A stretch of 64,000 nt of DNA from Minisyncoccales bacterium. Lineage in GTDB: Bacteria; Patescibacteriota; Minisyncoccia; Minisyncoccales; JAGMDC01. Under the pieces are notes generated by a model that was not told where the DNA came from, did not search any database, and saw only the letters and a list, made by a program, of their open reading frames with translations. The stretch spans positions 1,010 through 65,009 of the forward strand of contig JBARPC010000027.1 of NCBI GenBank assembly GCA_049642725.1, read 5' to 3'. Shown here in pieces: positions 6,637 to 7,728 of this stretch. How positions within the stretch are numbered: the stretch's first letter is position 1; each line of letters begins with the position of its first letter. Position numbers and translations under genes: made by a program.

Positions 6637-7728
6637 ATGAAAAAAATATTTTTTATACTAATTATAAGTTTTTTCTTTCTGTTTAATTTTTGGGTAATAG
6701 CAGAAGCGAAAGATTGTGATGCAGGAGATCTGGTTTGTGGCGGGGTGGCTGAATGTGAAGAAACTGCAACTCAAGATGGATGTTTAGCAGATTGCAGTGT
6801 TGGGGAAGGTTTTGGCGGTTGGGCTTGGCCCAAGTGTGATTGTAATCTTAAAACAGAAGCAGAAAGTGATTGCTGGTGTGAGTGTAATGAACAGTGTGCA
6901 GACGACTGGTGTAAAAGTTTGGGTCGCGCTAAGGGAATATGTAAAGACAGTAAAGGGCATTGTTGTGATGCTACAGAAACAAATTGTGATATTGATTCAG
7001 ATGATGAAGATTGTGATGGCAAATTAAATTGTAACGATAAAGAAGATTGCGAAGGTGAGATTTGTGATACAAATAAAGTATGCAAGAATGGCGCCTGCGT
7101 TGAGAAAAAGCCAGCCTGTGTTACTGATTGCCAGCAGGTAACTCAAACTTGTCTTTGCGGCAGTAAAGAAACAGAAGTAGAAAGCGGAGAGTTTTGTTGT
7201 ATTGCCTTAAGTAAAAGATATACTTTAAAAACAGATTGTGAAAAACAATGTGAACAGGTCTGTCCAGAAGATTGTGATAATTTAGCGCCTGTGCCTTGTT
7301 ATTGTGATTCAAAATTAATTGAAGTTGATGAGGAGAAATATTGTTACGGAGGCAAAGTTTATACTGAACAAGAAAAATGTAAAGAAGATGAGGCAGCGCC
7401 TCCGGAAGAAGAAAAACCGCCAGGATTTTTTGTTTGTCCAGGAGATAGAGCAGAATGCCCCGAAGGATCATTTTGTATTGAAAATCCTTTATGCGCTGAA
7501 ACTTTTGAGCAGCTTATAAATGCAATTGTTAATTTTATTTTTTATATTGCTTTAGCAATTGCGCCGATAATGTTTATTATTGCCGGCTTGGCTTTTATTA
7601 CGGCAGCAGGCGACCCGGCTAAAATTAAAACAGCTAAAGATATTGCCTTATGGACAGCAATAGGTTTAATAGTTGTTTTGCTTGCTACTGGAATAATTAA
7701 AGTAATTCAGGAAATTTTCAGTGGATAG
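6637..7728 (+). CDS. Cysteine-rich acidic secreted domain fused to a C-terminal VirB2/TrbC-like pilin module, paralogue 2
   Basis: Signal peptide, then a ~270-aa region with about 40 Cys and many Asp/Glu. The C-terminal ~75 aa are nearly identical to paralogue 1 (FIFYIALAIAPIMFIIAGLAFxTAAGDP), and 55 nt are identical at the DNA level. Confidence 0.6.
   Translation: MKKIFFILIISFFFLFNFWVIAEAKDCDAGDLVCGGVAECEETATQDGCLADCSVGEGFGGWAWPKCDCNLKTEAESDCWCECNEQCADDWCKSLGRAKGICKDSKGHCCDATETNCDIDSDDEDCDGKLNCNDKEDCEGEICDTNKVCKNGACVEKKPACVTDCQQVTQTCLCGSKETEVESGEFCCIALSKRYTLKTDCEKQCEQVCPEDCDNLAPVPCYCDSKLIEVDEEKYCYGGKVYTEQEKCKEDEAAPPEEEKPPGFFVCPGDRAECPEGSFCIENPLCAETFEQLINAIVNFIFYIALAIAPIMFIIAGLAFITAAGDPAKIKTAKDIALWTAIGLIVVLLATGIIKVIQEIFSG

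Follow-up and report, generated by a model that had tools for sequence, protein, structure and literature searches.

Can the small pilin of a type IV secretion system (T4SS) carry a large extracellular head, and if so, what might the head do? The question is raised by the middle one of three tandem genes in a stretch of 64,000 nucleotides (nt), called here the window, from contig JBARPC010000027.1 of a Minisyncoccales bacterium (assembly GCA_049642725.1), a member of the candidate phyla radiation (CPR). VirB2-type pilins are regarded as minimal subunits, about 70-120 amino acids (aa) long, and contact with the target cell is credited to separate proteins: VirB5 or, in monoderms, PrgB-type adhesins. 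The protein considered here has 363 aa, and between its signal peptide and its pilin module lies an acidic, cysteine-rich domain (the head). Among the VirB2-like pilins already known from Patescibacteria it represents a variant, and the family to which it belongs is restricted to a small number of uncultured lineages of Minisyncoccales/Parcubacteria. It will be argued that the protein may be a minor subunit of a VirB2-like fibre, with the head as a candidate adhesin.

A pilin module with its signature intact

An earlier note on this DNA, made from the sequence alone, described three tandem pilin-like genes at 6300..8121, the middle one with a signal peptide and a complete C-terminal pilin module. 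All three open reading frames (ORFs) lie there on the + strand (Table 1), and all three match PF18895 (T4SS_pilin), the Pfam family of CPR VirB2-like pilins, above its gathering threshold of 26.6 bits: pilin 1 with 37.8 bits, the long protein with 48.1 (residues 288-357, within the C-terminal 83 aa) and pilin 3 with 52.0. The same hidden Markov model (HMM) matches the six non-self long homologues, all six of them. The database record of the long protein, from a contig of 65.9 kb, is already named 'pilin', and NCBIfam gives a sub-threshold similarity to NF045849, a family of pilin-like proteins of mycoplasma integrative and conjugative elements. In size the long protein falls outside the range of PF18895 pilins (about 100-150 aa).

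Residues 281-363 align without a gap to the mature part of pilin 1, the closest paralogue (72% aa identity, as against 37% with pilin 3). The IENPL junction that the earlier note saw as shared with pilin 1 is real and coincides with a direct repeat of 258 nt (7477-7734 and 6372-6629, 78% nt identity). Hydrophobic segments occupy residues 290-326 and 332-363, and the AlphaFold model is a hairpin of two helices (290-322 and 327-361) separated by the basic loop AAGDPAKIKTAKD. At the other end of the protein, the signal peptide is supported by a hydrophobic segment at residues 1-25, a modelled helix at 2-24 and an AXA motif read from the sequence; cleavage is predicted, by eye, after A24. Since the protein begins with a Sec signal and the loop obeys the positive-inside rule, the implied topology has the head outside, the hairpin in the membrane and the C-terminus outside. 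VirB2 pre-pilins have the same topology.

The ratio of nonsynonymous to synonymous substitution rates (dN/dS) is 0.19-0.25 for the module of the long protein, 0.22 for pilin 1 (measured against its L002 orthologue) and 0.32 for pilin 3. Because these values fall in the same range, the module appears to be constrained as a functioning pilin, beyond what a hydrophobic anchor would need. This bears on the main rival explanation, a serious one but on balance rather unlikely, in which a duplicated pilin hairpin was co-opted as the C-terminal anchor of a surface protein that does not polymerise. The anionic, disulfide-rich, Ca2+-binding ectodomain could then act as an adhesin, a cation reservoir, an envelope stabiliser or a receptor. 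If the hairpin were no more than an anchor, hydrophobicity should be all that is conserved, but the full pilin signature has been kept, including the loop motif AAGDPxKI. The gene, moreover, is inside a pilin array, its start separated by 13 nt from the stop codon of pilin 1 and its end by 66 nt from pilin 3; so short a first gap makes co-transcription with pilin 1 likely.

Cysteines that come and go in pairs

The long protein contains exactly 40 cysteines, all after the signal peptide, and 68 acidic to 32 basic residues. Cysteine makes up 11.0% of it, compared with 1.04% over 58 ORFs of the window and 5% in the next richest of them. The head itself (residues 25-280/282) is 256-258 aa long, with 39 cysteines and a net charge of -36; the fortieth cysteine comes just after IENPL. 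The earlier estimate of an acidic domain with about 40 cysteines was thus close, its length of about 270 aa somewhat too generous, and the two peptides quoted from it are present, NCDIDSDDEDCDGKLNCNDKEDCEGEICDTNKVCKNGAC at residues 116-154 and WCKSLGRAKGICKDSKGHCC at residues 91-110. The point of insertion is precise: the head follows the signal peptide directly and is followed in turn by what would be the mature N-terminus in a pilin of the paralogue-1 type.

Conservation of the head was judged from an alignment of seven sequences, the window protein and its six homologues. Cysteine is invariant in 26 of the 42 columns in which it occurs, and the number of exported cysteines is even in every sequence (40, 38, 36, 38, 34, 36 and 30). 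Apart from deletions of module D, described below, cysteines differ among the homologues always in pairs (Table 1). Even counts and pairwise losses argue that the cysteines are disulfide partners rather than metal-thiolate ligands; the exported part very probably has about 20 disulfides, and the pairs lost together provide a partial map of them: C110-C126, C188-C205, C213-C248, C267-C286 and C274-C280. With a dN/dS of 0.21-0.36, the head is real and under purifying selection.

The same observations bear on thiolate metal sequestration, an improbable explanation by which the head would work in an anoxic habitat in the manner of metallothionein or would bind Cu or Zn through its CxC, CC and CWCEC sequences and its MopE-type motif. 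The CxC and CC motifs are certainly dense, one of the modules resembles a Pfam family that bears the name Cu-binding_MopE, and many CPR organisms inhabit anoxic groundwater or sediment. But thiolate ligands would not be expected to be lost strictly two at a time from a total that stays even in all homologues. Conserved tryptophan and other aromatic residues, along with predicted beta-hairpins, indicate folded modules, and the solved homologue of module B uses carboxylates to bind Ca2+ and cysteines to form disulfides. Enzymes of thiol-disulfide chemistry are also encoded in the window and are widespread in CPR.

That this organism has disulfide enzymes outside the cytoplasm is plausible, since the window has genes for thiol-disulfide proteins and since MdbA-like oxidoreductases and VKOR are reported to be CPR-enriched (bioRxiv 10.1101/335083). 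The window genes form a cluster of extracytoplasmic thiol-disulfide proteins at 56985-59456 on the - strand (Table 1), a cluster that could service the 20-disulfide head. Next to it, at 59488-61149 on the same strand, are a permease of the ArsP_1 type, a small Thioredoxin_3 protein and a cysteine-rich ORF of 101 aa that, by reading of the sequence alone, has the look of an ArsR-type regulator.

Anatomy of the head

Four small cysteine-rich modules (A to D) follow one another in the head, and a flexible acidic linker comes after them; one might speak of a tethered mosaic whose pieces are cystine modules the size of toxins. Five head sequences searched alone found no Pfam family at E <= 10 and none in NCBIfam. 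Two AlphaFold2 models were made, one of the full-length protein with 5 sequences and one of the head with 7, and with these models Foldseek found nothing in the PDB at E < 0.5. Profiles for EGF, TSP_3, LDL-A and defensin domains were set aside as direct matches, and with them went the supposed direct likeness to EGF and thrombospondin type 3, profiles that gave no match at E <= 10.

Module B is the only part of the head with clear relatives. A profile of the family finds the C-rich domain of teneurin-4 (7PLP) with E = 4.6e-5, and 41 distant proteins match this segment and no other part of the head, usually with 4-18 tandem copies of it. In the three distant matches examined (P0008, P0009 and P0012), PF11617 (Cu-binding_MopE) falls at the same place in all three, and over the distant proteins sampled it is either PF11617 or NF033662, the acidic double-disulfide repeat, that matches there. 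NF033662 reaches 27.6 bits in P0003 against a cut-off of 41; the window sequence by itself matches neither of the two models. The relationship of the teneurin C-rich region to PF11617 had been noticed before by Tucker et al. (PMC3278476). The teneurin-4 domain binds three Ca2+, through E835, D840, D843, N844, D845, D847, D851, D854 and D856, with its cysteines used in disulfides; sites I and II resemble thrombospondin T3 and site III resembles LDL-A (PMC9058538). In the head-bearing family, eight of the nine ligand positions are kept as D, E or N (E114, D120, D123, E124, D125, D127, N131 and D134 in the window protein), and the ninth position is variable, with the adjacent D137, a further candidate ligand, kept in six of the seven sequences. 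Of the six teneurin cysteines, which pair 1-3, 2-5 and 4-6, five also align; the equivalent of C857 is Asp, and an extra cysteine, C126, is lost together with C110 of module A. A putative three-Ca2+ site of the teneurin kind is therefore strongly inferred for module B. The calcium binding first suggested from the DxDxD-C pattern thus gains a solved homologue, while the tie to thrombospondin type 3 becomes an indirect one, through the teneurin sites.

Modules C and D are copies of an internal repeat. Their alignment scores 56, and shuffled sequences score 27 +/- 5, none of 2000 reaching 56. The extra pair of module C, C188-C205, is exactly the pair that module D is without.

Among 1.84 billion cluster representatives searched, module A has no homologue beyond the three clusters of head-bearing proteins. 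For its segment 79-110 (CWCECNEQCADDWCKSLGRAKGICKDSKGHCC) the models show a helix and a beta-hairpin, and in both models the top Foldseek matches of the segment are of the cysteine-stabilised alpha/beta (CS-alpha/beta) fold: scorpion K+-channel toxins and defensins, over about 29 residues, with TM(target) scores of 0.6-0.87 (E 0.57 and 0.72; predicted local distance difference test, pLDDT, about 55). A phmmer search with residues 77-115 likewise gave butantoxin and OSK1 as its best matches (E 0.57-1), with five of six cysteines aligned and CC in place of CxC. Could the head then be a tethered toxin- or defensin-like effector, a set of knottin-sized modules, some CS-alpha/beta-like and some like inhibitor cystine knots, delivered or released onto the host membrane, perhaps by cleavage of the variable linker? 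This is highly improbable. The similarities, and with them the earlier description 'defensin-like', come out on top of both kinds of search but are non-significant (E 0.57 or worse) and fall on regions of low pLDDT. Module C does match the spider toxin Hm-3 (E = 0.0056), a candidate set aside, as the aligned cysteine frameworks differ and no cystine framework is conserved. The charge of the head, -36, is unlike that of the cationic defensins and channel toxins, and neither a protease site nor a maturation gene was identified.

The linker differs in length and composition from one homologue to another, being poly-Glu in both P0003 and P0004 but poly-Gly in P0007. Surface proteins on a tether typically have such a flexible connection, and this counts for the protein as membrane anchored. 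The juxtamembrane segment beyond it, with C286, accounts for two variable and dispensable disulfide pairs (C267+C286 and C274+C280).

Distribution and origin of the long gene

How widespread is the head? A word-indexed search with the head only gave five proteins at the 90% level, 322-363 aa long and all ending in PF18895. In an exhaustive HMM search of cluster representatives at 50% identity, the 1.84 billion mentioned above, the whole head occurred in just three clusters (P0003, P0006 and P0007), and all three end in the pilin module. The head is thus not a widely annotated domain that regularly accompanies such pilins, a finding that by the earlier note would have refuted its reading. No relatives of the head turned up in the GTDB species representatives, and a scan of JGI metagenomes found one further head locus. 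Plasmid and phage collections gave no match, and so an origin of the head in a mobile element was ruled out. None of the related assemblies is listed in the supplementary tables of a survey of T4SSs in Patescibacteria (PMC12102498).

Rare as it is, the architecture recurs in three to five independent assemblies, depending on how overlapping records are counted. The gene order ftsW, gyrA, methyltransferase, pilin 1, Cys-rich pilin, pilin 3, Hsp20, PrsW, TsaD, recG is common to L002-L004 (P0002) and L005. An artefact, whether from chimeric assembly, from a pseudogene or from an ORF that arose by chance in DNA rich in cysteine codons, may therefore be taken as already refuted: the same architecture, with synteny kept, in several independent assemblies and in metagenomes leaves it next to no room, nor would an artefact show purifying selection and an invariant cysteine framework.

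Sister genomes (L006-L008 and, from the GTDB representatives, L009, L010 and L015) have identical flanks, but no more than two pilins between them: pilin 1, of 111 aa, and pilin 3, of 106-108 aa. By this synteny the two-pilin arrangement is the ancestral state, and the long gene a lineage-specific gain in a narrow Minisyncoccales/Parcubacteria clade. It arose by duplication of a gene of the pilin-1 type, the copy lying between the two short pilins and gaining a head at its mature N-terminus. For L002, a neighbor-joining tree and the synonymous divergence (dS) hint that pilin 1 and the module in the long gene have evolved in concert, but the sequences are too short for a conclusion. Two of the homologues, P0003 and P0004, have the same sequence from about residue 205 onward to the C-terminus, yet over the N-terminal half of the head their identity is only about 60%; such a mosaic points either to intragenic recombination between lineages or to chimerism of an assembly.

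Two further differences were seen in these loci. The pilin-1 orthologue at L005:3818-4108 ends early (96 aa, '...VLLLQ*'), possibly a truncation or a sequencing error. Sister GyrA proteins (L006:3523-7452 and L008:78-2891) contain an intein (Intein_splicing within DNA_topoisoIV), which the GyrA of the window (2986-5517, 843 aa) is without.

Heads on other pilins

Extra domains are uncommon among PF18895 proteins. The 120 best relatives are 91-225 aa long, 112 of them no longer than 155 aa, and 98 pilin ORFs in 32 loci of species representatives have a median of 120 aa. Those of about 195-225 aa are 'double pilins', two complete pilin modules fused in tandem. A few others are unusual in more than one way (Table 1); the pilins themselves are PF18895-positive and their extra domains have no Pfam match. 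Four of these, in L024, L034, L039 and L016, share a layout with one another: an N-terminal head, a low-complexity linker and then the pilin module. Such recurrence fits a modular design of head on pilin, of which the window protein appears to be the most extreme member seen, and it is not what one would expect if the hairpin of the window protein had become a simple anchor. No description of head-bearing VirB2-like pilins was found in the literature searched, including the survey of Patescibacteria T4SSs and a T4SS review of 2025, so for that literature the earlier impression that the architecture had not been described for VirB2-type pilins seems right.

In the Saccharimonadia-like loci L034 and L039, the multi-pilin arrays are flanked by proteins with SpoIID and Peptidase_M23 domains (L034:5309-6973, L034:11297-13399 and L039:1909-3639). 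These were the only proteins recognised in the flanks, and several ORFs of 700-1190 aa have no Pfam match. The large ORFs and the flanking proteins may correspond to what PMC12102498 mentions as divergent core proteins of the T4SS and analogues of VirB1.

Surroundings of the array and other features of the window

The neighbours of the array in the window are housekeeping genes: upstream ligA, ftsW/rodA, gyrA and a small methyltransferase gene, downstream those for tRNA-Leu, Hsp20, PrsW, TsaD and RecG. Every ORF of at least 450 aa in the window has been assigned (LigA, GyrA, RecG, GH38, FtsH, RpoB, RpoC, FtsK, RNase J, an SBP_bac_5 protein, a Kelch/LVIVD protein, a penicillin-binding protein and GroEL), and none is a T4SS ATPase, in agreement with what had been said at the outset of VirB4 and VirD4.

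Table 1. Features of the pilin array and of related loci. Coordinates without a prefix are those of the window, residues and cysteines are numbered along the long protein, and prefixes L and P denote other loci and proteins.
Feature	Location	Strand	Description
Pilin 1	6300..6623	+	107 aa; short VirB2-like pilin of the p1 type; 2 Cys near the mature N-terminus
Cys-rich head-bearing pilin	6637..7728	+	363 aa + stop codon; middle gene
Signal peptide	6637..6708	+	aa 1-24; Sec type: MKK, hydrophobic core, AEA
Head module A	6709..6975	+	aa 25-113; 15 Cys; WAWPKCDC and CWCECNEQCADDWC among the invariant motifs
Head module B	6976..7116	+	aa 114-160; 7 Cys; single acidic double-disulfide / MopE-motif / teneurin C-rich repeat
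Head module C	7117..7251	+	aa 161-205; 8 Cys; first copy of internal repeat; pLDDT 65-80
Head module D	7252..7386	+	aa 206-250; 6 Cys; second copy of repeat; dispensable, missing in P0005 and P0007
Acidic Pro/Glu-rich linker	7387..7425	+	aa 251-263; EDEAAPPEEEKPP; pLDDT < 50 at 255-265
Juxtamembrane Cys segment	7426..7476	+	aa 264-280; GFFVCPGDRAECPEGSFC; leads into IENPL
Pilin module	7477..7725	+	aa 281-363; IENPL junction, transmembrane helix 1, basic loop AAGDPAKIKTAKD, transmembrane helix 2
Pilin 3	7795..8121	+	108 aa; divergent pilin of the p3 type; no Cys
Cysteine pair	C110 + C126		lost together in P0003
Cysteine pair	C188 + C205		lost together in P0006
Cysteine pair	C213 + C248		lost together in P0006
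Cysteine pair	C267 + C286		lost together in P0002, P0003, P0004, P0007
Cysteine pair	C274 + C280		lost together in P0007
Trx-CcdA fusion	in 56985..59456	-	407 aa; signal peptide, Trx (WAHGCPHC), CcdA-like part with multiple transmembrane segments
DsbD_2 protein	in 56985..59456	-	239 aa
Membrane-anchored CxxC protein	in 56985..59456	-	159 aa; HQCWSC; no Pfam match
Two-pilin locus	L006:8001-8775
Two-pilin locus	L007:1339-2113
Two-pilin locus	L008:3435-4205
Two-pilin locus	L009:9917-10691
Double pilins	P0074, P0078, P0083, P0085, P0086, P0097, P0100, P0148
Pilin with head	L024:18-686		Fn3/Ig-like-looking head, PT linker, Cys-rich juxtamembrane stretch
Pilin with head	L039:3739-4437		beta-rich head, about 110 aa
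Pilin with head	L034:7431-8519		head, PT-rich linker, two pilin modules
Pilin with head	L016:1214-1885		Gly-rich head
Pilin with tail	L032:688-1329		Cys/Asp-rich C-terminal tail
Pilin with extension	L011:10836-11363		Cys-containing extension, 60-70 aa
Pilin with extension	L033:1119-1640		Cys-containing extension, 60-70 aa

Elsewhere in the window, two regions code for products that are further candidates for surface or host-interaction proteins, two Peptidase_C39-like proteins, one with a Big_5 domain (44788-46592, - strand), and a secreted Kelch + LVIVD beta-propeller protein of 710 aa (47789-49921, + strand). The stretch 13317-15342 (+ strand) has a low GC fraction, 0.27-0.28 compared with about 0.34 elsewhere, and is absent from the syntenic loci L002 and L006. 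It contains an ORF of 378 aa that looks like a DNA methyltransferase (no Pfam match) and a DpnII/Tsp45I-like restriction endonuclease, and is likely to be an acquired restriction-modification system. A possible toxin-antitoxin pair is seen at 61936-62818 (- strand), where a SocA/Panacea-domain, antitoxin-like ORF (62327-62818) overlaps an ORF of 132 aa with no Pfam match (61936-62334).

Two tRNA regions also deserve mention. ARAGORN predicts a tRNA-Ile with the anticodon TAT, uncommon in bacteria, at 20895-20967 (- strand), adjoining a tRNA-Val(GAC). At 61312-61841 (+ strand), two diverged tRNA-Ser(TGA) genes, identical in 85% of alignment columns, stand on either side of an ORF for a GIY-YIG nuclease of 78 aa (61511-61747), possibly a small insertion at a tRNA gene.

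Discussion

What would a pilin do with such a head? The explanation that seems best to account for the locus, put forward tentatively and at somewhat under an even chance, is that the long protein is a minor, head-bearing subunit of a VirB2-like fibre and acts as an adhesin. It would sit in the membrane with its N-terminus out, like a VirB2 pre-pilin, and its basic loop in the cytoplasm. Machinery of the VirB4 type, encoded elsewhere in the genome, would then take it up along with the two co-transcribed short pilins. As a minor subunit it would be sparse along the fibre or would form the first layer, at the tip, and the displayed head, stabilised by Ca2+ and disulfides, would contact the surface of the host cell, thereby supplying the adhesin function not found for patescibacterial T4SSs. 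In conjugative pili of solved structure (the F-pilus), it is the N-terminal end of the pilin that lies outermost.

Both polymerisation and adhesion are inferred here; co-assembly with pilins 1 and 3, as a sparse or terminal subunit, is favoured by the place of the gene within the array, by the constraint on the module, which is that of a pilin, and by the modular design of the tether. A homopolymer of head-bearing subunits is unlikely, since a 28-kDa head on every subunit probably would not pack: by a rough geometric estimate, the outer surface available to each subunit is too small for it. The same known geometry of pili suggests that a head of 258 aa would be sterically awkward in any helical fibre of the VirB2 type, and this counts in favour of an anchored protein that does not polymerise.

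Several other considerations weigh against a fibre subunit that serves as an adhesin. First, no VirB4, VirB6, VirB3 or VirD4 was found in the 64-kb window or within 10 kb on either side of the homologous loci, so that in the genomes seen there are no T4SS genes near the locus, as might be expected of an anchored surface protein; pilins lie near virB4 in 1135 of 1948 patescibacterial assemblies, and distant pilins are thus common (PMC12102498). Second, what supports the label 'VirB2-like' is membership of the Pfam family, together with the overlap, below threshold, of that family with PF04956 (TrbC/VirB2). The gathering threshold of PF04956 is 27.9 bits, and against it the long protein scores 16.1 and its homologue P0007 21.9, though the head-bearing pilin of L024 reaches 28.2. 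The TrbC/VirB2 identity given to the protein at first reading thus holds by way of PF18895 and falls short by PF04956. A search of PDB sequences with a profile of the pilin module gave a designed coiled coil and noise, with no solved VirB2, TraA or CedA1, and Foldseek matched the module only non-significantly, to the conjugation pilus of A. pernix (E = 4.5). Third, the AlphaFold2 models of the head are of low confidence (mean pLDDT 57-58, predicted template modelling score 0.22-0.30), and no fold or binding surface could be named from them for modules A, C and D. So negative a net charge (-36) would suit the binding of cations or an electrostatic function just as well, and as an adhesin the head is a candidate and nothing firmer. 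Fourth, the family is tiny and may be a lineage-specific oddity of little general role. Finally, a patescibacterial pilus is so far undemonstrated (PMC12857230), a point that favours the anchored protein as well.

Suppose nevertheless that the long protein is a minor subunit of a fibre. Perhaps patescibacterial VirB2-like pilins are then modular display scaffolds, the head-bearing ones being the missing adhesins, or determinants of host specificity, of an essential T4SS; the Ig-like-looking, beta-rich and Gly-rich heads found in other lineages (L024, L034, L039 and L016) would belong to the same class. So broad a claim is doubtful, but if it were true, host range would be encoded in the pilin array itself, and the Cys-rich family would comprise the most elaborate head-bearing pilins, the first VirB2-type pilins with a folded extracellular domain. 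The protein offers a concrete candidate for host attachment in CPR and makes contact between a T4SS and its host a testable question. It also puts a calcium module of the teneurin/MopE type into a new context, as part of a bacterial mosaic of toxin-sized cystine modules.

Comparison with known systems

The closest comparison is with the VirB2-like pilin arrays of 2-11 genes that are common in Patescibacteria (Quinonero-Coronel et al. 2025, PMC12102498). Tandem arrays as such are thus already known, and what is new to the literature searched is the head. The array of the window shares with them a CPR host, a PF18895 protein with signal peptide and two-helix hairpin, a tandem set of divergent chromosomal genes and a proposed role in epibiotic life. 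According to a citation in PMC12857230, such an array is essential in Southlakia epibionticum; epibiotic growth of Patescibacteria depends on the T4SS and a pilin array. Unlike the small members described, one member of the present array has a head of 258 aa, and virB4 is not among the neighbours of this array. In the module, moreover, the long protein and pilin 1 reach 72% identity, above the maximum of 54% reported for the arrays (PMC12102498).

Module B aligns with the teneurin C-rich domain (7PLP), PF11617 and NF033662, with eight of nine Ca2+-ligand positions and five of six cysteine positions kept. It differs from teneurin in being without C857 and in having the extra C126, apparently bonded to C110 of module A, and it differs from the secreted bacterial proteins of the PF11617 type, with their 4-18 tandem copies, in being single and in lying within a unique multi-module head. 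The window sequence reaches the threshold of neither curated model.

Adhesins have been sought in these organisms: the patescibacterial survey detected none, those of the PrgB type included (PMC12102498), and the T4SS review of 2025 likewise speaks of small-pilin arrays and of no adhesins detected. PrgB-type adhesins, anchored through LPxTG, provide cell contact for the T4SSs of monoderms (PMC12857230). They differ from the present protein in having no pilin module, in being anchored by sortase and in their polymer-adhesin domains.

A functional analogy may be drawn to VirB5, to PilC/PilY1, to the minor pilins of type IV pili and to FimH, each a low-abundance binding subunit on a fibre of small subunits. 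There is no relation of sequence or fold to any of them. Fusions to F-pilin are known only with short peptides, and no binding domain is known to be fused to a VirB2-type pilin, nor was one found in the literature searched. In the protein described here, the presumed binding domain is fused to a copy of the major-pilin fold itself.

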